This document shows positions 4,457 to 63,033 of a DNA stretch of 64,000 bases, piece after piece; within the stretch, counting starts at the first letter, position 1; the number at the start of each line of letters is the position of its first letter. Below the pieces are notes generated by a model, which saw nothing but the letters and a program-made list of their open reading frames with translations, did not search any database and was not told the origin of the DNA. A program made the position numbers and the translations under genes. Source of the stretch: Patescibacteria group bacterium (GTDB lineage: Bacteria > Patescibacteriota > Patescibacteriia > UBA9570); NCBI GenBank assembly GCA_041660305.1, contig JBAZWO010000006.1, forward strand, positions 16,432 through 80,431, given 5' to 3'.

Positions 4457-4720
4457 ATGGATCAATTAATTACAACTAATAATACTATAGGCGCATTTGC
4501 GGCTAAAACGCATTTATCTGCCATTTTGGAAAAAGTGCAGGCCGGGCAGGTGTTTACAATTACTAAAAACGGTAAGGCCGTGGCCGAAATTAAATCGGTG
4601 CAGTCAAATTCAGCCAAAGCTCACACAGCGTTAGCGATGGCTCGTAAAATACGAGAATCGGTGGTTGGCACAGTTACTCGGGAGGAAATTAAAGAGATGA
4701 TTAATTATGGTAGGCCATAA
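4457..4720 (+). CDS. type II antitoxin, Phd/YefM family
   Basis: An 87-aa protein whose N-terminal pattern FAAKTHLSAILEKVQAGQVFTITKNGKAVAEI fits Phd/YefM. It lies immediately upstream of a PIN-domain ORF. Confidence 0.8.
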   Translation: MDQLITTNNTIGAFAAKTHLSAILEKVQAGQVFTITKNGKAVAEIKSVQSNSAKAHTALAMARKIRESVVGTVTREEIKEMINYGRP

Positions 4721-4723
4721 ATT

Positions 4724-5192: not shown

Positions 5193-5504
5193 ATGGCCAC
5201 AACTACTATGAGTATTAAAATAGACGCACAAGTTAAACAATCTGCTCAACAAATCGCTGCGGATCTAGGCTTAAGTTTAAGCGGTGTGGTGAATGGTTTT
5301 TTAAAACAATTTGTGCGTACCAAAGCAGTGCATTTTAGCTTAGAAGAAAAAGAAATTCCGTCACCATATTTAATTAAAGCTTTAAGGGAGTCACAGGAAG
5401 ATATTGCCGCTGGCAGAGTATCGCCCGCTTTTGATAATGCTGAAGACGCTATTAAATGGTTACACACTCCTGAATCTGAGCAGAAATATGCAAATCAACT
5501 TTAG
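5193..5504 (+). CDS. type II antitoxin, RelB/DinJ family
   Basis: The N-terminal ribbon-helix-helix-like segment SIKIDAQVKQSAQQIAADLGLSLSGVVNGFLKQFV fits this family. It is followed by an overlapping toxin ORF. Confidence 0.8.
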   Translation: MATTTMSIKIDAQVKQSAQQIAADLGLSLSGVVNGFLKQFVRTKAVHFSLEEKEIPSPYLIKALRESQEDIAAGRVSPAFDNAEDAIKWLHTPESEQKYANQL

Positions 5505-5709
5505 TAAACGATTTAATAAACAATATAAAAAAGCAGCTTTAAATATTCAGAGAGCTTTTAACAATCGTTTACAAATTTTTATAGATAACAAATTTCATTC
5601 TAGTTTACATAATCATGCCTTAACAGGACAATTTGAAGGTTTTCGGAGTATTAATGTTACTGGAGATTGGCGAGCATTATTTCATGAGAATGAAGATGAT
5701 TCAATATAG
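5488..5709 (+). CDS. type II toxin, RelE/YafQ-family mRNA interferase
   Basis: The internal ATG at 5488 of track ORF 5404-5709 gives MQINFSKRFNKQYKK...LHNHALTGQFEGFRSINVTGDWRALF. It overlaps the antitoxin 3' end by 17 nt. Confidence 0.75.
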   Translation: MQINFSKRFNKQYKKAALNIQRAFNNRLQIFIDNKFHSSLHNHALTGQFEGFRSINVTGDWRALFHENEDDSI

Positions 5710-7061: not shown

Positions 7062-8126
7062 ATGGCATTACAAATAGGCATTGTTGGTCTGCCCAACGTA
7101 GGAAAATCAACGTTATTTAAAGCGCTGACCAAAATTCAGGTGGAGGCGAGTAATTATCCGTTTTGTACGATTGATCCTAATATTGGGGTGGTACCGGTGC
7201 CGGATGAACGGATTAATAAATTAAGTGTGTTATCAAAATCAGCCAAAACGATTCCGGCCGCGATTGAGTTTGTGGATATTGCCGGGCTGGTAGCGGGTGC
7301 ACATAAAGGTGAAGGATTGGGCAACAAGTTTTTAAGCAATATTCGAAATGTAGATGCCATTGTGCAAGTGGTGCGCGAATTTAGCGATGGGAATGTTATT
7401 CATGTGCATGGCAAAGTGGATCCAAAAAGCGATGTTGAGGTGATTAATTTAGAATTAATCATGGCCGATCTGGAATTATTAAAAAAACATTTAGACAAGG
7501 TAGATAAAAAAGTGCGCGGCAATGATAAAGAGGCGATTCGTGAACAAGTGGTGCTGAAAAAAATTATTACTGTGTTAGAAGCCGGCCAGTTAGCCAGTAC
7601 GGTTACGCTGGATCCGGAATTAGAAGAGCCATTTGTTAAAGTGTTAAATTTGTTAACCAGAAAACCCATGTTGTATGTGGTGAATGTGGATGAATCTGCT
7701 ACGCCGAAGGCTTCGCAGAATTTTGGCCATGATGCAGTGGAAATTTCAGCTAAAATTGAAGCCGAATTAGCAGAATTGCCAGATGAAGATGCTAAAATGA
7801 TGATGCAGGAATTAGGGATGAAAGAAACTGGGTTAGAAAAATTAATTGTGGCTAGTTACAAACTACTTAATTTAATATCTTATTTTACTACCGGCGAAGA
7901 TGAAACTAAAGCTTGGACGATTCACCAAGGCGATTTAGCGCCTCGAGCCGCCGGAGTGATTCACACCGATTTTGAACAGAAATTCATTCGGGCGGAAGTA
8001 ATTGCTTGGGATAAATTATTAGAGGCCAAAGGGTGGGCACAGGCTAGAGATAAAGGCTGGTTACGCATGGAAGGAAAGAATTACATGGTGCACGATGGAG
8101 ACGTAATGGTGTTTCATCATGCGTAA
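7062..8126 (+). CDS. ychF: redox-regulated/ribosome-binding ATPase YchF
   Basis: G1 motif GLPNVGKSTLF, NYPFCTIDPN, and a C-terminal TGS-like end MEGKNYMVHDGDVMVF. Confidence 0.95.
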   Translation: MALQIGIVGLPNVGKSTLFKALTKIQVEASNYPFCTIDPNIGVVPVPDERINKLSVLSKSAKTIPAAIEFVDIAGLVAGAHKGEGLGNKFLSNIRNVDAIVQVVREFSDGNVIHVHGKVDPKSDVEVINLELIMADLELLKKHLDKVDKKVRGNDKEAIREQVVLKKIITVLEAGQLASTVTLDPELEEPFVKVLNLLTRKPMLYVVNVDESATPKASQNFGHDAVEISAKIEAELAELPDEDAKMMMQELGMKETGLEKLIVASYKLLNLISYFTTGEDETKAWTIHQGDLAPRAAGVIHTDFEQKFIRAEVIAWDKLLEAKGWAQARDKGWLRMEGKNYMVHDGDVMVFHHA

Positions 8127-9747
8127 ATTTAATTTTCCATTCATCTTGTTAATCACGTTGATCATGATCATCATGGTCACGAATTGTATTTGGATTTATC
8201 AAGACCAAAGTCCGCCATTATCAGATATGGCTGGCCATTCGTTTCGTAGTGTGCAAATGGCTCATTGGTTACAGGATGGTAAATTGTTAAGTATTTTAAA
8301 ACAAGATACCATTTATCCACCATTTACTTATCTGGTTACGGGAATTATTTTTTTATTAGTTGGTTATTATCCAGATATTCCACAGTATTCGTTATTGTTA
8401 TGGGTAATAATATTAATGATTTCTATTTACAGTATTGGTAACACGATTTATAAAAATAAATATTTAGCGTTAGGCGCAACAGCGTTAACCATGTGTTATC
8501 CATTGGTAGCACATTTTAGCAGAATTTATGATCTTGATTTTCCGTTAACGGCCTTAGTAACAGCTAGTATGGCGGTATTATTACAAACGAATCATTTTGC
8601 TAAACGCCGGGAAACTATTGTTTTTTCATTACTAGTGGTAGCGGTATTATTAACCAAATGGACAGGAGTGTTTTTTATAGTGGGGCCAGCGTTTATTGTA
8701 TTATTATCAAAACGAAATAACATTAATATAAAAAATATTAGTCTGGCATTAGGCATTATTTTGGTGTTGACCATGCCTTGGTATTGGTTGCACACCAACA
8801 TCATTTTAGATATTGCCGAGGCTACGCGCAATAATGTGTTTTCTGTGCCACACGAGAATTTGTTACGTTTAAAAAGTTTGTTATTTTATGCACGATCTAT
8901 TACGCAAGGCATTATTTGGCCACTAACTCTAATATTTTTAACTGGTGTGATTATTTGTTTTAAAAAAATAAAACGTTGTTATTTTTGGCTATTAGTTAGT
9001 TGGTTGATAATACCATATTTAATCTTCACGTTTATTTATTCAAAAGAGATTCGTTATTTAATGCCGTTGTATCCGGCGCTAGCTCTTTGCAGTATGAGTT
9101 GTTTTAGTTATTTATTTTCAGCTTACTCACTGAAGCTTAAGCGTAGGTGGGTGTTCTCAGTAATTATTTCAGTATTCTCAGTGATTCTGATGTTTTGTAT
9201 TTGGTTCGATACATCTTGGGGCACAAGACTGTTACCATTTTCTCATGCCTACGGTTATCAAAAAATTACTCCTAAACAAGTGTATTATGGGTTTACGTAT
9301 CCTACGCAGTATCACACAACATTAATGTTAGTTGCTCAAGAACTAGCTAATATAGGTTCAGCTAAAGTAGCGGTAGTGCCGAATAGTATTTTTTTAACGG
9401 CTACGCAAATACAATATTACACGGCGTTGCATGGTAATATAAAGCTTAATTTTTCATTGAGTAGTAAATTGCGCAATCCGGCGTGGCGAGATGTATTACC
9501 TCAAGCCGATTATGTGATTACCAAAACCGGCGAACAAGGGCCAAAATTATGGGCAGCTAATTTAAAAGATATTGCAACAGCTGAACAGAATAATGATGTT
9601 ATTTTTCAGCAATTTGAATTAATTGGTCAGTGGCAATTAAATGGTATTGAAACTAGTGCGCAACAAATTAATTTATATAAAAAAAACGATAAATTACTCC
9701 CTTTCCCCTTAATAGGGGAAAGGGTTGGGGATAGAGGTAGGATTTAA
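8119..9747 (+). CDS. polytopic membrane protein, GT-C fold glycosyltransferase-like (PMT/ArnT, GT39/GT83-like); last ~16 aa encoded by repeat element C
   Basis: It has at least 10 hydrophobic segments, an IYPPFTYL motif typical of PMT_2/ArnT-like proteins, and a large C-terminal soluble domain. The C-terminal LLPFPLIGERVGDRGRI is read from the GC-rich hairpin. Confidence 0.6.
   Translation: MRKFNFPFILLITLIMIIMVTNCIWIYQDQSPPLSDMAGHSFRSVQMAHWLQDGKLLSILKQDTIYPPFTYLVTGIIFLLVGYYPDIPQYSLLLWVIILMISIYSIGNTIYKNKYLALGATALTMCYPLVAHFSRIYDLDFPLTALVTASMAVLLQTNHFAKRRETIVFSLLVVAVLLTKWTGVFFIVGPAFIVLLSKRNNINIKNISLALGIILVLTMPWYWLHTNIILDIAEATRNNVFSVPHENLLRLKSLLFYARSITQGIIWPLTLIFLTGVIICFKKIKRCYFWLLVSWLIIPYLIFTFIYSKEIRYLMPLYPALALCSMSCFSYLFSAYSLKLKRRWVFSVIISVFSVILMFCIWFDTSWGTRLLPFSHAYGYQKITPKQVYYGFTYPTQYHTTLMLVAQELANIGSAKVAVVPNSIFLTATQIQYYTALHGNIKLNFSLSSKLRNPAWRDVLPQADYVITKTGEQGPKLWAANLKDIATAEQNNDVIFQQFELIGQWQLNGIETSAQQINLYKKNDKLLPFPLIGERVGDRGRI
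9699..9741. repeat. GC-rich hairpin element, copy C
   Basis: A perfect 10-bp stem CCCTTTCCCC/GGGGAAAGGG with loop TTAATA (9699-9724), then GGGGATAGAGGTAGG. The 26-nt core and GGGGATAGAGGTA are shared with 61646-61690. Confidence 0.85.
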
Positions 9748-10871
9748 TTGTATCGTAAAAAATAAATGTGTCTGACCACTTGGGCATGAGCGCGGCCGTA
9801 AAAAATCGGCTCATGAAATGGTTCAAAATGATTTTGCTGTAACACGTTTTGCAACGGCAAAGTTAGCATGCCATCAAACCGGCGCCAAGCGGGCAGTGCT
9901 ATTACTAAGCGTGCGTTGGGCGCTAAGAGTTTTGGTAATACTGTAAATACATCTTGGTAAAATTTGGTTAATTGGCGATGAATTTTTTCGGTTTTGTTGG
10001 GGTGCACGGGACCTAAATAACCTTCACTAACAATGCAGTTAATAGAATTAACCGGTAATATATTAGATAATTGCAATATATCACTAAGATGTAACGGCAC
10101 ATTAGGTAGTTTTAACCAAGCTAAATTATTAGCGGAATCTTCAATGCATTTTTTAGAAATATCTGATCCAATAATGTTTTTATGCCCTAATAATAGAGCT
10201 TCTTGTAATACCGTACCAGAACCACAGAACGGATCTAACAATGTTTCAGCTGGTTGAGGTTGAACAATATTTACCATCATTTTCGCTACTTTTGGCGGAA
10301 GCATGCCAGAAAAGTGATCGCGTTGCGGGCGACCGTAATCGCGTTGGGCATATTCTTCGAATGGTTGCACGGTTAAGGTTTGGCCAAGTATAATATGTTT
10401 TTTATAAATGGCAATAATAAAATCGGTTTGCTGATCGAGTAAATGTTCTTTTTTTACAATTACAGAAGATAAAGCCGGCTCCAAACTTTCCACTAAACGC
10501 ACTGAACCATTTACACGCAAGTCTTTTTTCCAGGCAATACCAATCGGCTTAATTTTTTTAGCATAATGTGTTACCACTTCAGGTGTAACTTGGTTATCGG
10601 CCGCGTACACACTAAAACCAAAGTGTAATTTTTTATCCGGTAACTGTAATTGAGCTAAGTAATCTTTTAGTTGTTCAATGCCGGCTAAACTACGGTCAAT
10701 CTGGCCAATGATTTTAGCTGTTTTTATAGTGCCACCTAATTGATCTATGTCTGGCAATGTATCTAATTGAGCAATCGAGCCGTGTTGCCAAGTAATATTA
10801 TTATAAAGCGTAATCAACTCTAAAGCGGATAATTCCGGAGTATTACCTAAAACAGCTAAATATTTATTCAT
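9744..10871 (-). CDS. SAM-dependent RNA methyltransferase, UPF0020/Trm11/RlmL-like catalytic domain
   Basis: Motif I is LLDPFCGSGTVLQEALLLG. The N-terminal region of about 180 aa could be a THUMP-like RNA-binding module, though this is not verifiable here. Confidence 0.6.
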   Translation of the reverse strand: MNKYLAVLGNTPELSALELITLYNNITWQHGSIAQLDTLPDIDQLGGTIKTAKIIGQIDRSLAGIEQLKDYLAQLQLPDKKLHFGFSVYAADNQVTPEVVTHYAKKIKPIGIAWKKDLRVNGSVRLVESLEPALSSVIVKKEHLLDQQTDFIIAIYKKHIILGQTLTVQPFEEYAQRDYGRPQRDHFSGMLPPKVAKMMVNIVQPQPAETLLDPFCGSGTVLQEALLLGHKNIIGSDISKKCIEDSANNLAWLKLPNVPLHLSDILQLSNILPVNSINCIVSEGYLGPVHPNKTEKIHRQLTKFYQDVFTVLPKLLAPNARLVIALPAWRRFDGMLTLPLQNVLQQNHFEPFHEPIFYGRAHAQVVRHIYFLRYN

Positions 10872-11806
10872 AAACGATATTTTCTAAACCAGGTAATAAA
10901 ATTTTGCATACCCTCAGTAAACGAAGTTTGTGGTTGATAATTTAATAATTTTTGTGCTTTGCTAATATTAGCACAGGTATGTTTTACATCGCCAGTTTGT
11001 TCAGGCGCTTGTTCAATAATAGCCTGTTCGCCACTAAGCTGTGCAATAGTCTCAATAAACTCATTTAATGTAACAGATTTATTATTGCCTAAATTAATAA
11101 GCTCATAATTAAACGGGTTTTTTATAGCCGCTACAATGCCTTGTACAATATCGTTCACATAAGTGTAATCTCGGCTAGAAGAACCGTCACCAAATTTTTT
11201 AATTGGCTGATGTTTTAAAATAGCTTCGGTAAATAAATAAGGCGCCATATCCGGCCGACCACGTTCGCCGTATACTGTGAAAAAACGCAAACAGGTCACT
11301 TTTAATTTTTCTTTATCAGCAAACTGTTTTAGTAGCTGTTCAGCCGTTAATTTGGTAGTGGCATAGGGTGAAATTGGCTGGCCGGTAGTGTCCGTTTCTA
11401 CATAAGGTCGATTTGGGTTATCGCCATATACAGAAGAAGATGAACCAAATACCAATTGAGAAATGCCATAACGCACAGCTAATTCAGCCAGATTCTTAGT
11501 GCCTACTACATTAACGTCTTCATATAATTTTGGTTGTAATAATGATGGCCGAATGCCGGCTCGTGCCGCCAAGTGAACAATGCAATCAAATTGATGTTCT
11601 TTAAAAACAGTTTCTAATTTATTTTTATTACAAATATCTATTTGATAGAACGGTACATTTGGATAAAGTTTTAAATTAGCTAATTTATATTGTGGATCAT
11701 AATAATTGTTTAGATCATCAATGACTACTAAATCATGTTCAGCTTGTAGCGTTTCTACAACGTGTGAGCCAATAAATCCAGCGCCGCCGGTGATTAATAT
11801 GTTCAT
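10868..11806 (-). CDS. NAD-dependent SDR epimerase, UDP-glucuronate 4-epimerase-like
   Basis: GGAGFIGSH Rossmann motif, catalytic YATTK, and the LRFFTVYGERGRPDMA signature typical of UDP-GlcA 4-epimerases. Confidence 0.75.
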   Translation of the reverse strand: MNILITGGAGFIGSHVVETLQAEHDLVVIDDLNNYYDPQYKLANLKLYPNVPFYQIDICNKNKLETVFKEHQFDCIVHLAARAGIRPSLLQPKLYEDVNVVGTKNLAELAVRYGISQLVFGSSSSVYGDNPNRPYVETDTTGQPISPYATTKLTAEQLLKQFADKEKLKVTCLRFFTVYGERGRPDMAPYLFTEAILKHQPIKKFGDGSSSRDYTYVNDIVQGIVAAIKNPFNYELINLGNNKSVTLNEFIETIAQLSGEQAIIEQAPEQTGDVKHTCANISKAQKLLNYQPQTSFTEGMQNFITWFRKYRL

Positions 11807-11812
11807 AATATC

Positions 11813-11885
11813 CTACCTCACCCTGTCTCTCGACTTACGCTCGAGACATCCCTCTCCTATTAGGAGAGGGAAAGAGGGAGAGGTA
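11813..11885. repeat. GC-rich nested-hairpin element, copy E
   Basis: 11-bp terminal inverted repeats TACCTCACCCT (11814-11824) and AGGGAGAGGTA (11875-11885) with 1 mismatch. Inner hairpins are TCTCGA/TCGAGA (11828-11846) and CCCTCTCC/GGAGAGGG (11850-11870). Confidence 0.8.
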
Positions 11886-12790
11886 ATTTTTAAATATTCC
11901 TTAATCCCTTCCTTAAAATTATACTTTGGTTTCCAGTTTAAGATAGCCCTAGCTTTGCGAGCATTTAAACACGAGCGCAGTGCTTCACCGGTACGCACGG
12001 CTTTGTATTTAGCCGTTGGCGCATGTTTAAAATTAGCACTAATGGTATCGTAAACCATTTGGTCACTTATTTCTTTACCTAAGCCTAAATTTACGGTTAA
12101 ATGATCTCCTTTTTTTAAACCAATTACGTTAGCCTGTACAATATCAGCCACATAAGTATAGTCGCGCGTTTTTGAGCCATCTCCATATATAGTTGGATTA
12201 ACATTCTGGCGAATTTTCTCGCTAAATATTGCTACCACACCAGCCTCACCATGTGGGTCTTGTCGTGGACCATACACATTTGGGTAACGAAAAATAGTGT
12301 AATTAAATTTTCCAACTCGAGCATAATATTCAATACACTTTTCGCCTAATAATTTTGATAAACCATATGGTGAAAGTGGTTCAGGGTTTACTCGTTCAGA
12401 AATGGGGTATTTGCCCGGATCTCCATAAATAGCGCCACCGGTAGAAGCGAAGATAAACTTTTTAATCTTAATTTCCATGCCCGTCAACAACAAGTTTACC
12501 GTGCCTTGTACGTTCACTTCCAAAGTTGGAATAGGGTCGGTAACCGATTTTACTACTTCCGCAATAGCGGCATGATGGTTAATAATTTCCGGTTTTTCTG
12601 TCTGCATAATCTTGCGAATAGCTGTTAGATCACGAATATCTGCCTGATAAAACTTAGCTTTTGGGTTAATATTCTGTTTAAAACCATGGTGCATACTATC
12701 AACCACCACTACTTTATGGCCTAATTTAATATAAGCAGCAGTAATATGAGAGGCAATGAATCCGGCTCCGCCGGTAACGAGAATACGCAT
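11813..12790 (-). CDS. NAD-dependent SDR epimerase/dehydratase (UDP-glucose 4-epimerase-like); last ~24 aa encoded by repeat element E
   Basis: GGAGFIASH, catalytic YGLSK, and RYPNVYGPRQDPHGEAGVV. The stop TAG is the reverse complement of the element's terminal CTA (11813-11815). Confidence 0.8.
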   Translation of the reverse strand: MRILVTGGAGFIASHITAAYIKLGHKVVVVDSMHHGFKQNINPKAKFYQADIRDLTAIRKIMQTEKPEIINHHAAIAEVVKSVTDPIPTLEVNVQGTVNLLLTGMEIKIKKFIFASTGGAIYGDPGKYPISERVNPEPLSPYGLSKLLGEKCIEYYARVGKFNYTIFRYPNVYGPRQDPHGEAGVVAIFSEKIRQNVNPTIYGDGSKTRDYTYVADIVQANVIGLKKGDHLTVNLGLGKEISDQMVYDTISANFKHAPTAKYKAVRTGEALRSCLNARKARAILNWKPKYNFKEGIKEYLKITSPSFPLLIGEGCLERKSRDRVR

Positions 12791-12798
12791 AAACTTAT

Positions 12799-13068
12799 TT
12801 ATTTTTTATATAAACGCTTAACTATTAATAATAACAACGCTAATCCTACACTAATTATGGTCATTAGCCAAGGCACTAAAGCCCGTTGCGGTGCTAAAAT
12901 TTTATCTTCATAATAAGGGTCGCCTAATAACGTAGTATCGTGCGTTAACGCTAAAATAAAAATCGCTATAGCGCTAATTAAGCAACAACCTAAAATACTA
13001 TATAATAAAATATTAATTATTTTATTGGAATTATTTAAGCGCATAGATAATGTATTTTTCATTTTCAT
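12799..13068 (-). CDS. small two-TM membrane protein, hypothetical
   Basis: An 89-aa ORF with two hydrophobic helices and no recognisable family. Confidence 0.4.
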   Translation of the reverse strand: MKMKNTLSMRLNNSNKIINILLYSILGCCLISAIAIFILALTHDTTLLGDPYYEDKILAPQRALVPWLMTIISVGLALLLLIVKRLYKK

Positions 13069-60016: not shown

Positions 60017-60178
60017 ACACCCTCAACCCCCTAAACATCCTACCTCACTCCCCCTAACCCCCTCTCTCCTCTGATTCTACCTTCCATCCCCAACCCTTCC
60101 CTCCTCTAAAGAGGGAAGGGAGAATTACGAAATTATTCCCTCCTTCCTTTGAGGAAGGAGGGTTAGGGAGGAAGGTAG
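60017..60178. repeat. GC-rich nested-hairpin element, copy B (composite), filling the aroB/aroA-aroK spacer
   Basis: Outer imperfect inverted repeats lie at 60040-60060 and 60160-60178 (CTACCT.../...AGGTAG). The inner 48 nt at 60077-60124 are identical to 1043-1090. A perfect 10-bp hairpin CCCTCCTTCC/GGAAGGAGGG lies at 60138-60162. Confidence 0.85.
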
Positions 60179-60211
60179 TATTGATGAGAAGAGACAGAAG
60201 GCCAAAGAGTT

Positions 60212-61693
60212 ATGCATCTTAAACCCGTCAAAATCACCCTTACTTTACCTGGTTCTAAATCGTTAACCCAACGAGCGTTAATTTGTGCTAGCTTGGCGCA
60301 AGGGCAATCAATTATTACGGCACCTAATTATGGTGATGATTTACAATATTTAATTAAGGCATTGCAACAACTAGGTGTACGTATACAAAAAAAATCGAAC
60401 CAACTAATTATAAATGGAGTAGCTGGAAAGTTTTGTGTGCCAACTAAGCCAATTTATGTAGGCGATTCCGGTGCTAATTATCGTTTTCTAGCCGAATTAG
60501 TACCAGTCGGTACCAAATTAACGGGTTCAGCTCAATTACAAAAACGTTTACTAAAAACGGCGCCAACTAGTCAAACGATATCTGGAAAATTATTAGCCGG
60601 TACCCTAACTAAGATACCTGATAAGTTAGTTTCCAAAGGTTATGTGGCCATGACACAAGCCGTTATTCGTGATTTTTCCGGACGCGGTCGAAAATATATT
60701 ATCGAGCCCGATGCTAGTGCGGCCACATATTGGCTCACTTATAACTGGATAACTGGTGCAAAAATAACGTTTAGTAACTGGCCAGTAAAATCTTATCAAC
60801 CTGATTTTCAGTATGCTAAAGCATTGCAACAGTTAACTAACGGCCAAACAGCGTTTGATTTTAATACCATGCCGGATAGCGTAATGAGTTTAGCTGTAGC
60901 AGCCATTTTTACCAAGAAAATAATTACTATTAAAAATATTTCCCAGCTTACTTACAAAGAAAGTAATCGTTTGCAAGCGTTACATTATAATCTAACTAAA
61001 ATCAACATAAAAAATACTATTACAAAAAACAGCATTACTATTTATGGCACGGGTGGTAAATTTAAACATTCCAAAATTAAAACTTTTAATGATCACCGCT
61101 TGGCCATGAGTTTTGGGGTATTAGGTTTGCCAGTAGATAAACCAAATTGTGTAAATAAAAGTTATCCTAATTTTTGGCAAGATTATAAAAAAATTCAAGA
61201 GGCTAATGTAGTGTTAACCGGTATGCGTGGGGTAGGCAAAACTACGTTAGGTAAACAATTAGCCAAACAATGGGGTATGAAGTTTGTGGATTTAGATCAA
61301 CTTATTGAACGTAAAGCTAAATTACCAATTGCTGAAATTGTTGCACGCTACGGCTGGAAAAAATTTCGTGCACTTGAACATCAAGTTTGTAAACAAATTA
61401 CTAAATTACAAAATACGGTTATTGCAACTGGCGGCGGCACATTAATGTATACACGTAATTACCAATTACTAAAACATAATTATATTATTTTATTAACCGC
61501 GCCATTAACTACATTAGCTAAAAGAATTAAACAAGATAACAATATTAGGCCAGCATTATCAAAAAATAACACGGCATTATCAGAATTAAAGGCGATTTGG
61601 GATAAGCGCAAAGAAACATATTATAAAATAGCGGATTTAATTTCCCCCTTTCCCCTTAATAGGGGAAAGGGGGCGAGGGGGATAGAGGTATGA
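60212..61693 (+). CDS. aroA-aroK: bifunctional EPSP synthase (short form, ~330 aa) / shikimate kinase; last ~16 aa encoded by repeat element D
   Basis: AroA motifs are LPGSKS, GDSGANYRF, EPDASAATY, KESNRL, NDHRLAMSF and KSYPNFW. The AroK domain starts near 61211 (TGMRGVGKTTLGKQLA, VDLD, GGG). Confidence 0.85.
   Translation: MHLKPVKITLTLPGSKSLTQRALICASLAQGQSIITAPNYGDDLQYLIKALQQLGVRIQKKSNQLIINGVAGKFCVPTKPIYVGDSGANYRFLAELVPVGTKLTGSAQLQKRLLKTAPTSQTISGKLLAGTLTKIPDKLVSKGYVAMTQAVIRDFSGRGRKYIIEPDASAATYWLTYNWITGAKITFSNWPVKSYQPDFQYAKALQQLTNGQTAFDFNTMPDSVMSLAVAAIFTKKIITIKNISQLTYKESNRLQALHYNLTKINIKNTITKNSITIYGTGGKFKHSKIKTFNDHRLAMSFGVLGLPVDKPNCVNKSYPNFWQDYKKIQEANVVLTGMRGVGKTTLGKQLAKQWGMKFVDLDQLIERKAKLPIAEIVARYGWKKFRALEHQVCKQITKLQNTVIATGGGTLMYTRNYQLLKHNYIILLTAPLTTLAKRIKQDNNIRPALSKNNTALSELKAIWDKRKETYYKIADLISPFPLNRGKGARGIEV
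61644..61690. repeat. GC-rich hairpin element, copy D
   Basis: A perfect 12-bp stem CCCCCTTTCCCC/GGGGAAAGGGGG with loop TTAATA (61644-61673), then GGGGGATAGAGGTA. The core is shared with copy C at 9699-9741. Confidence 0.85.
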
Positions 61694-63033
61694 TTTGTAT
61701 TGTCATCACCAATCCATCTCAAATTAAAACAGCCAACAAAACCGCCGCTAATTTATTAGAATTGCGCACAGATTTATATAAAATTTTTTCTTTAAGTAAA
61801 TTAGTGAAACAATGCCAGAAACCTGTTATTGTTACCATTAAAAATCAAGATAAACAGTTATTGCAAGAAGCTTTAAATTTAAACGTAGCTTATATTGATA
61901 TTGATTACAAAAATAAATTACTGTTAAACTATTTTGAAAAAAATAACAAAAATAATAAAACCAAATTAATTATTTCGTATCATAATTTTTCTCACACTCC
62001 TTCATTCAAACAGTTGGATCGGTTGGTTAAATCAGGCGTGAATAAAATAGCAACCATGATTAACGCGGTTGAGGATAACTGGGTAATCGCGCAGTTATTA
62101 AAAAAATATCCTAATAAAATTACCGCTATTGGCATGGGGGAATTAGGGATCATGACAAGACTGCATCCGTGGCAGAAGATTAGTTATTTTGCGATTGGCT
62201 TTGGTAGAGACGCCTTGCAAGGCGTCTCTACCAAAAAAATTGCTCCAGGGCAATTAACTATTCAAGAGCAAAAATTAAAATTATATGGCATTATTGGTAA
62301 TCCGGTGCAGCATAGCTTATCGCCAAAATTACATAATAGTTGGTTCAAGCAGCATAATATTTTAGCACTATATCAACGCTGGCAGGTAAAGACGTTGCAT
62401 GCAACGTCTCTACAGTTAATGATGAAAATATTCAGATTTTTTGATTTAGCCGGCGCGTCGGTAACCATGCCATATAAAAAAGATATTATTAAATATTTAG
62501 ATAGCATTAATATTCATGCCAAAAAGATTGGTGCAGTTAATACCATTGTGCGGAAAGGAAATAAATTAATTGGCTATAATACCGATTGGATCGGGGTAAA
62601 ATTAGTATTTAACCCCCTGCCTTGCAGGGAAGGGGGTAGGGGGAAGGGTCTACGCGTCTTAATCTTAGGCCGCGGTGGCGCAGCTCAGGCAGTGGCGTAT
62701 GCCATGAAAAAAATGGGTGCGAAATCAATTAACATGTTATCACGTCATGATAAACCAGATATAAATTTTGATATTCTAATTAACGCCACACCCGTGCGTG
62801 ATAAATTATTAATTCCGAAAGAATTATTACACGGTAAAATCGTGATGGATTGTAATTACCTGCCTTCGCTAAAGCTATGGCAGGCAGGTGGCGCTACTAA
62901 ATTATTACGTGTGGCAAAAAAAATGAACGCAATTACTATAGATGGATTACCAATGTTAATCAATCAAGCCAAAGAGCAATTTAGATTGTGGACTAGTAGA
63001 GACGTAGCGCGCTACGTCTCTACTATGTTATAA
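61690..63033 (+). CDS. aroD-aroE: bifunctional type I 3-dehydroquinate dehydratase / shikimate 5-dehydrogenase
   Basis: AroD motifs are ELRTDL, IISYHNF and KIATM. AroE motifs are YGIIGNPVQHSLSP, SVTMPYK, AVNTI, GYNTD and LGRGGAAQA. The ATG overlaps the upstream stop (ATGA). Confidence 0.88.
   Translation: MICIVITNPSQIKTANKTAANLLELRTDLYKIFSLSKLVKQCQKPVIVTIKNQDKQLLQEALNLNVAYIDIDYKNKLLLNYFEKNNKNNKTKLIISYHNFSHTPSFKQLDRLVKSGVNKIATMINAVEDNWVIAQLLKKYPNKITAIGMGELGIMTRLHPWQKISYFAIGFGRDALQGVSTKKIAPGQLTIQEQKLKLYGIIGNPVQHSLSPKLHNSWFKQHNILALYQRWQVKTLHATSLQLMMKIFRFFDLAGASVTMPYKKDIIKYLDSINIHAKKIGAVNTIVRKGNKLIGYNTDWIGVKLVFNPLPCREGGRGKGLRVLILGRGGAAQAVAYAMKKMGAKSINMLSRHDKPDINFDILINATPVRDKLLIPKELLHGKIVMDCNYLPSLKLWQAGGATKLLRVAKKMNAITIDGLPMLINQAKEQFRLWTSRDVARYVSTML
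62201..62234. repeat. perfect 34-bp palindrome, GTAGAGACG-N10-CGTCTCTAC family, copy 1
   Basis: TTGGTAGAGACGCCTTG|CAAGGCGTCTCTACCAA. It is in frame as GRDALQGVST in the AroD-AroE linker. Confidence 0.9.
62386..62413. repeat. 28-bp palindrome (1 mismatch), same family, copy 2
   Basis: GTAAAGACGTTGCA|TGCAACGTCTCTAC. It is in frame as VKTLHATSLQ, a different frame from copies 1 and 3. Confidence 0.85.
62612..62637. repeat. GC-rich hairpin inside aroE part
   Basis: ACCCCC (62612-62617) pairs with GGGGGT (62632-62637). The alternative is CCCTGC-CTT-GCAGGG (62615-62629). It is translated as NPLPCREGGRGKG just before the GRGGA nucleotide-binding loop. Confidence 0.6.
62858..62889. repeat. GC-rich inverted repeat inside aroE part
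   Basis: ACCTGCC (62858-62864) pairs with GGCAGGT (62883-62889). It is translated as YLPSLKLWQAGG. Confidence 0.45.
62994..63025. repeat. perfect 32-bp palindrome, GTAGAGACG-N10-CGTCTCTAC family, copy 3
   Basis: TAGTAGAGACGTAGCG|CGCTACGTCTCTACTA. It is in frame as SRDVARYVST at the extreme C-terminus of AroD-AroE. Confidence 0.9.

Follow-up and report, generated by a model that had tools for sequence, protein, structure and literature searches.

Three in-frame palindromes in an aroD-aroE fusion gene of a Patescibacteria group bacterium: probable members of the double-foot REP family

What are three short palindromes doing inside the reading frame of a single biosynthetic gene? The question is raised by a 64,000-nucleotide stretch of DNA (the window) from a Patescibacteria group bacterium (assembly GCA_041660305.1, contig JBAZWO010000006.1, positions 16,432 to 80,431), in which an aroD-aroE fusion gene at 61690-63033 on the + strand carries three inverted repeats with nearly identical 9-nucleotide arms. 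The gene, as defined by the open reading frame (ORF) list, Pfam, an orthologue alignment and an AlphaFold model, encodes a 447 amino acid protein that joins a type I 3-dehydroquinate dehydratase to a shikimate dehydrogenase (Pfam DHquinase_I, Shikimate_dh_N and SDH_C). Our analysis suggests, with a probability that we put at about 0.8, that the three palindromes belong to a family already described, the "double-foot" repetitive extragenic palindromes (REPs), which are non-autonomous elements partnered with REP-associated tyrosine transposases (RAYTs), specifically HUH transposases of TnpA_REP subclass 2.4.

All three palindromes lie within the coding ORF and are in frame, and so are not extragenic as classical REPs are. 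Copy 1 (GTAGAGACG CCTTGCAAGG CGTCTCTAC, core at 62204-62231) is contained in a perfect palindrome of 36 nucleotides at 62200-62235 and encodes residues 172-181 (GRDALQGVST) in the linker between AroD and AroE. Copy 2 (GTAAAGACG TTGCATGCAA CGTCTCTAC, 28 nucleotides at 62386-62413) has a single mismatch, between its left arm GTAAAGACG and its right arm CGTCTCTAC, and encodes residues 233-242 (VKTLHATSLQ) in the other open frame from that used by copies 1 and 3. Copy 3 (GTAGAGACG TAGCGCGCTA CGTCTCTAC, core at 62996-63023) is perfect over the 32 nucleotides from 62994 to 63025, and its residues 436-445 (SRDVARYVST) stand directly ahead of the stop codon. The three share the pattern GTA(G/A)AGACG-N10-CGTCTCTAC, and their 10-nucleotide centres (CCTTGCAAGG, TTGCATGCAA and TAGCGCGCTA in copies 1, 2 and 3, respectively) are mutually unrelated and each fully self-complementary. 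This gapped pattern is expected 0.00 times in the window according to 100 dinucleotide-preserving shuffles, and a looser scan for 28-nucleotide GTA...TAC palindromes gives a mean of 0.04 per shuffled window. The window scan bears out the original prediction in the coordinates, lengths and symmetry of copies 2 and 3, and the ORF confirms the three peptides and their two reading frames; copy 1 is present and perfect as had been claimed, with a palindrome of 36 rather than 34 nucleotides. No further copy was found in the other ~74 kb of the ~75 kb of this genome examined. An identical AroD-AroE protein is encoded on a JGI contig, an ENA contig and the record of a Patescibacteria group metagenome-assembled genome (MAG) at NCBI, so it is unlikely that an assembly artefact lies behind the palindromes, with the proviso that these assemblies may share reads.

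Whether such segments are insertions or ancestral coding sequence can be judged from orthologues, and we aligned 22 of these, the closest of which are 62–67% identical and the three named sources of which are Patescibacteria or Kerfeldbacteria MAGs. The palindrome-encoded segments are absent from all 22, the closest ones included. Since the shuffles expect no such palindromes and no aligned orthologue contains the segments, the palindromes are insertions and are not ancestral coding sequence, which is the outcome that the original prediction had favoured. The AroD-AroE linker that contains copy 1 is about 10 residues longer than in the orthologues, and removal of 62203-62232 (30 nucleotides, made up of the 28-nucleotide core and one flanking base on each side) joins ...AIGF to KKIAPGQL, which leaves a linker of orthologue-like length. 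Copy 3 extends the C-terminus relative to the orthologues, and removal of the same 30-nucleotide unit there (62995-63024) joins ...LWT to ML and the stop codon, at a length near that of orthologue C-termini. Copy 2 adds a net five residues relative to every orthologue, 10 codons having been gained and about five host codons lost.

The AlphaFold model, which was built from the alignment (mean predicted local distance difference test score, or pLDDT, of 89.4), places copy 1 in a disordered linker (residues 172-182, pLDDT below 50, without secondary structure), copy 2 in a loop (233-237) and the first turn of the helix at 238-250 (mean pLDDT 81 for the block 231-240), and copy 3 in the C-terminal tail that follows the last helix, 420-435 (mean pLDDT 52 for the block 441-447). 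The model thus supports the earlier proposal that the copies occupy permissive sites, namely a linker, a loop with the start of a helix, and a C-terminal tail. Two additional segments of aroD-aroE are also absent from all of the orthologues: a GC-rich hairpin patch at 62614-62650 that encodes NPLPCREGGRGKG, and an imperfect palindrome at 62860-62895 (CTGCCTTCGC-TAAA-GCTATGGCAG) that encodes LPSLKLWQAGGA. Both are low-confidence loops in the model, and with them the gene has five hairpin-type insertions in total.

The family to which we assign the three palindromes was described by Quentin et al. 2018 (BMC Genomics 19:475, PMC6006769). Double-foot REPs begin with GT[AG]G at the 5' end and finish with C[TC]AC at the 3' end, and they go with TnpA_REP subclass 2.4, which is group 4 of the Bertels RAYT classification and has the motifs NH[IFV]H, WQ and YIxNNP. 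Published examples are 28–29 nucleotides long and occur inside tnpA_REP genes with the frame kept; Table S1 of that paper lists, for example, GTAGAGACGCACGGCCGTGCGTCTCTAC from Chloroflexus aggregans (double foot = T, subclass 2.4), and the string 'GTAGAGACG' is present there 15 times. The window copies start with GTAG or GTAA and end with CTAC, and they have the stem of about 12–13 bp, the 3–4 nucleotide centre and the overall length of about 28–29 nucleotides of the double-foot hairpins; in copy 2 the fourth base is an A (GTAA), which does not fit GT[AG]G and makes this a degenerate copy. Their 9-nucleotide arms, GTAGAGACG and CGTCTCTAC, are identical to arms of published members in Table S1, they too are inserted without breaking the reading frame, and the phyla that dominate our genome scan (below), Cyanobacteria and Bacteroidota with scattered others, are likewise those of the double-foot REPs. 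Three things are unlike the published cases: the host here is a MAG of the Patescibacteria (candidate phyla radiation), the in-frame insertions are in a housekeeping biosynthetic gene, three times, whereas the published ones are in tnpA_REP, and no cognate tnpA_REP was found in the window and the related loci searched. The literature searched held no paper that links RAYTs or REPINs with Patescibacteria, so our report of the family in this group may be new, as may the presence of three copies with unrelated centres in one gene; a literature search on the literal strings GTAGAGACG/CGTCTCTAC and TAGAGACG gave primer and cloning papers only.

Other families of short palindromes share some of these features. 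The GTAG REPs, among them the E. coli REP/BIME-RAYT system, share with the double-foot elements a short GC-rich hairpin, the GTAG tag and a proposed mobilisation by an HUH Y1 transposase. In classical REPs only one end bears the GTAG foot, the stem is imperfect and the families are usually species-specific, whereas the double-foot family has a foot on both strands, a perfect dyad and identical arms across phyla. According to Di Nocera et al. 2013 (PMC3733652) GTAG REPs are mostly intergenic, with a minority in ORFs, sometimes two per ORF, and stop codons often come from the TAG of the foot. The REPIN-RAYT system (Bertels and Rainey 2011, PMC3116915) also consists of a non-autonomous hairpin repeat and a RAYT gene flanked by repeats (as in locus L016, below), but a REPIN is two inverted REPs with a spacer and is longer than a single REP, and the unit here is a single 28-nucleotide palindrome. 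The original prediction had likened the palindromes to the Rickettsia palindromic elements (RPEs), at a much smaller size. RPEs are indeed palindromic repeats that lie in frame in functional genes, where they add surface peptide segments. Classical elements of the RPE-1 type are about 100–150 bp long. RPEs have no sequence similarity to the window element, which at 28–36 nucleotides, GTAG-tagged and with a different phyletic distribution is not a member of that group, and we assign it to the published double-foot family (PMC6006769) and not to a new miniature class akin to RPEs. The intragenic CGTC REPs of Rickettsia conorii have been equated with the short elements RPE-4 and RPE-6 (PMC3733652).

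A scan of one genome per species (596 Gb) with the pattern GTARAGACG-N10-CGTCTYTAC found at least 120 loci, against about 35 sites expected by chance (our own calculation from the size of the collection). The matches listed include Bacteroidota, Cyanobacteria, Chloroflexi, Acidobacteria, Ignavibacteria-type MAGs, Spirochaetales, Desulfuromonas, Zixibacteria and others, and the 9-nucleotide arms are identical across phyla. The 120 genome loci listed contain 128 copies, to which the following counts apply. Perfect self-complementarity is seen in 86 centres, although chance would produce it in 1 of 1024; another 32 have a single mismatch, and 74 distinct centres are represented. The family-wide centre thus keeps its symmetry and not its sequence, as had been claimed for the window copies, in which it also holds. 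The centre of copy 2, TTGCATGCAA, is among the four commonest (7/128), and the core of copy 3 is identical, centre included, to one in Parabacteroides distasonis (L067). Copies in the same genome often share one centre (L016, L045, L084). As to location, 88 copies are outside long open frames, 20 are near an ORF end and 20 are inside long frames. The flanks of the 28-nucleotide core have only a bias for T at -1 and A at +1 and an occasional longer palindromic extension, and on this ground we rejected the idea of a larger conserved element around the 28-mer.

In-frame double-foot copies are common elsewhere, and they include copies in genes for a GH2 galactosidase, an AcrB-type pump, a pullulanase and GMP synthase (guaA). 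The GMP synthase gene in question (4357-6225 of L277, contig Ga0172379_10004724) is from another organism of the same groundwater sample; its in-frame copy, at 4695-4722, reads VETRHGVSL and is identical to the copy in the aroA-aroK gene of L124 (below), and the gene also contains a second, longer copy, VETHGNLPRGKAGASLQ. The same pattern is present in viral contigs (IMG/VR), again in at least 120 loci (L127-L246); 150 copies were found in the 1.04 Mb retrieved, and several contigs have two or three. None of these viral loci encodes a RAYT-like protein, and pair 4-7 of the centre is complementary in 59% of the viral copies versus 90% in the genome sample. Phages may be vectors of the double-foot family.

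The link to RAYTs comes from the genes beside the palindromes. When the ORFs near the palindromes were clustered across the 120 genome loci listed, one recurrent neighbour was seen to touch a palindrome, a RAYT-like ORF of 180–250 amino acids, in nine of the 120. These ORFs have the motifs MPNH(L/F)H, WQ and YIxNNP, and they match the NCBIfam model NF047646, 'REP-associated tyrosine transposase', with E values of about 1e-15. In L016 the RAYT-like gene is bracketed on both sides by identical palindromes, and in L015, L069 and L094 a palindrome lies in frame within the RAYT-like gene, between the HUH and Tyr motifs. The RAYT-like gene of L086 bears an intact copy at its 5' end and is followed directly downstream by a tandem array (5272-5584) of six degenerate copies (GTTGAGACGC(A/C)CGGCCGTGCGTCTTTAC) with a period of 57 nucleotides. 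The original prediction had pointed to RAYT-like genes as a lead, and that lead has held up, in that the same palindrome flanks or interrupts such genes in these nine loci.

Related Patescibacteria MAGs have one to three copies per ~21 kb, except that L297 and L298 have none. The 21-kb locus of one related MAG, L124 (GCA_043798935.1), contains palindromes at 8385-8412, 9387-9414, 12944-12971, 10261-10284 and 10932-10953. Of the three double-foot copies there, one separates aroB from aroA-aroK and the other two lie in frame within aroA-aroK (FVETRHGVSLQ) and aroC (VEALHATSLE). L295 has an in-frame copy (VETRDLASL) in a TyrA-like gene, which is part of the same cluster of genes for aromatic amino acids. 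The aroD-aroE gene of L124 has two other small palindromes (of the GCGCGAATACGTATTCGCGC type) and an additional segment, GAPGFMPVGGQVATHWDKPGGFW. A tie of the copies to the aro operon is suggested by the window and L124, and we rejected it in view of the copies in L125, L295 and L296, which are outside shikimate genes, and the lack of any in L297 and L298. The palindromes of L125 (3390-3417 and 5425-5453) and L296 (19010-19037) are perfect or near-perfect GTA...TAC palindromes of 28–29 nucleotides, one of them inside a DNA ligase gene. Because their arms are different (GTAAGGACAACC..., GTAAGGGCTGAA... and GTAGATGCATGC...), they suggest that there are several double-foot subfamilies in this related Patescibacteria clade.

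If the palindromes are double-foot REPs, their arrival in aroD-aroE can be pictured as follows. The copies would spread as single-stranded hairpins, with a RAYT in trans doing the cutting and rejoining, as TnpA_REP does for REP in E. coli. The inserted unit would be about 30 nucleotides, or 10 codons, made up of the 28-nucleotide core with a flanking T and A; the T(-1)/A(+1) bias points to this size, and so do the clean 30-nucleotide excisions that copies 1 and 3 allow. Only one frame of the core reads G-TAG, which would leave two of the three frames open on either strand, so many insertions in genes would just add about 10 residues (VET....SLQ or xRD....VST). Selection would then retain copies only in tolerant places such as a linker, a loop or a C-terminus, and since a Patescibacteria genome is dense in genes and leaves little room between them, intragenic sites may be among the few available.

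Several observations weigh against the assignment to RAYT-mobilised double-foot REPs. The Pfam Y1_Tnp score of the RAYT-like ORFs is slightly below the curated cut-off (21 vs 23 bits). A search by tblastn with seven RAYT-like proteins and by a profile hidden Markov model (best E about 2), which covered the window, ~11 kb of flanking contigs and about 0.25 Mb from Patescibacteria-like loci, with L001, L126 and eight other Patescibacteria-like loci included, revealed no RAYT-like ORF; because of this, mobilisation by a RAYT in the Patescibacteria lineage is something that we infer. Copy 2 is not a clean 30-nucleotide addition, with its net gain of only five codons. The three copies known from ~75 kb are all in one 1.34-kb gene, a clustering that simple random insertion does not predict ((1.34/64)^2, or about 4e-4), and since their centres are unrelated they are not recent copies of one another. 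Finally, the symmetry extends into positions that are of no use to a hairpin. At the hairpin loop positions, complementarity is found in 90% of the genome copies listed for pair 4-7 of the centre and in 80% for pair 5-6, and the central 4-mers are nearly always 4-nucleotide palindromes (CATG, AATT, TGCA, GGCC and similar). Complementarity thus reaches four central nucleotides that cannot pair in the hairpin, and because hairpin stability cannot select for this, recognition or stability of the hairpin alone does not explain the symmetric loop, which points to a symmetric genesis or to recognition at the level of the duplex.

One alternative is that the hairpins are kept, or have been co-opted, for a role in the RNA of the aro operon, in processing by RNase III or another enzyme, in protection from 3' exonucleases or in translational pausing between AroD and AroE, in which case a REP origin would be secondary. 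The window copies fold with stems of 12–16 bp and a 4-nucleotide loop (ΔG -7.4 to -18.3 kcal/mol as DNA), and the RNA hairpins are very stable at -14.6 to -28.2 kcal/mol, copy 1 being at the far end of both ranges (-18.3 and -28.2 kcal/mol, with z about -8 to -9). The copies in the window and in the L124 locus, three in each case, are all within the aro operon, and Di Nocera et al. (PMC3733652) have argued that many REPs are parts of transcripts and function at the RNA level. We nevertheless regard an RNA role as unlikely. The positions are not conserved between related genomes, L295 and L125 have their copies outside the aro genes and L297 and L298 have none, copy 2 with its mismatch is already decaying, and an RNA hairpin has no need of perfect symmetry through the loop. 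Moreover, an Rfam search gave no match at the gathering score of any family, either for the palindromes of the window or for those of 19 other loci; sub-threshold matches in the window are generic ones to miRNA precursor models and to COG2827 RNA (21.4 vs 49.1 bits).

The symmetry through the unpairable centre, the failure to find a RAYT in the streamlined Patescibacteria genomes searched and the abundance of copies in viral contigs together prompt another, improbable reading, in which double-foot REPs are more than passengers of RAYTs. They would be generated or spread strand-symmetrically with no need of a resident RAYT, for example by a mechanism that phages bring in or that host replication and repair perform, and would be a recurrent source, in many phyla, of 10-residue loop insertions (VET....SLQ or RD....VST) in essential proteins. 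A further alternative does away with RAYTs altogether and has the palindromes made or renewed, perhaps by fold-back (template-switch) copying or by head-to-head joining of identical halves. Such a strand-symmetric process would explain why centres differ between copies and are still perfectly symmetric, including the unrelated centres of the window copies, the palindromic central 4-mers and the complementary loop pairs, and it would accommodate the failure to find a RAYT in the Patescibacteria sequence searched; Quentin et al. (PMC6006769) have themselves suggested that double-foot REPs arose by a central deletion of an inverted REP dimer. We think it quite improbable, given that arms identical across phyla require a sequence-specific partner or common descent, that the palindromes are in tight physical association with RAYT genes elsewhere, and that centres shared within a genome (L016, L045, L084) look like the product of copying from masters.

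The original prediction had also noted an inverted pair of CGTCTC sites (the recognition sequence of BsmBI/Esp3I) in each copy and taken it as a possible hint of a type IIS restriction-modification or nicking activity. The outward pair (GAGACG...CGTCTC) is present in copies 1 and 3 only; copy 2, with AAGACG in its left arm, has a single site. Beyond the copies the window has six CGTCTC/GAGACG sites, where about 10 would be expected over its full length, and this count indicates no marked avoidance and no enrichment; GAGACG just belongs to a 9-nucleotide arm that is conserved in many phyla, and no restriction-modification gene recurs near the copies in the 120 genome loci listed, where the recurrent neighbour is the RAYT, so that this explanation is highly implausible. 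Chance symmetry in ancestral coding sequence, or an artefact of assembly, would fit with the finding of these exact insertions in one genome only, and is extremely improbable when shuffles expect none, all orthologues lack the segments, the same 28-mers occur in unrelated loci (at least 120 genome and at least 120 viral) and the gene is identical in the JGI and ENA assemblies and the NCBI MAG.

If the double-foot assignment is right, it extends a published REP/RAYT family to the Patescibacteria, whose genomes are ultra-small and gene-dense and in which little mobile DNA is expected. One fusion enzyme of a biosynthetic pathway carries three 10-codon hairpin insertions as well as two other inserted segments and, if AroD-AroE is still functional, it would be a clean natural case of tiny mobile palindromes that lengthen linkers, loops and termini. 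The family-wide data, with arms identical across phyla, 74 distinct centres whose symmetry includes the loop positions, and copies in viral contigs, sharpen the questions of how double-foot elements are copied and why their symmetry is so perfect. For annotation, peptides of the form VETxxxxSLQ and RDxxxxVST in proteins or 'hypothetical' ORFs should be read as REP-encoded segments.

The window also contains a second family of hairpins, in which a polypyrimidine arm, a loop of 3–4 nucleotides and a polypurine arm (for example, TCCCCCTTTCCCCT taat AGGGGAAAGGGGG) are often followed by a G/A-rich stretch. These are at 1060-1086, 1100-1118, 9698-9725, 11849-11871, 60094-60120, 60137-60163 and 61643-61674. 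Several of them overlap the 3' ends of genes and supply C-terminal tails, as in AroA-AroK (...SPFPLNRGKGARGIEV), the product of ORF 8119-9747 (...LPFPLIGERVGDRGRI), and those of the ORFs at 1043-1888 and 11813-12790, both on the - strand. A 22-nucleotide arm pair of this family (CCCTTTCCCCT-N3-5-AGGGGAAAGGG) is present in 48 metagenome contigs, mostly from unrelated organisms, and since these span 33–69% G+C this family is also widespread. Two of its hairpins are combined in a hairpin of about 130 nucleotides between aroB and aroA-aroK (60062-60195), which gives spurious sub-threshold matches to Rfam miRNA precursor models (45 bits vs a gathering score of 150) and looks like a miniature inverted-repeat transposable element or a REPIN-like composite; its left part is repeated at 1040-1130.

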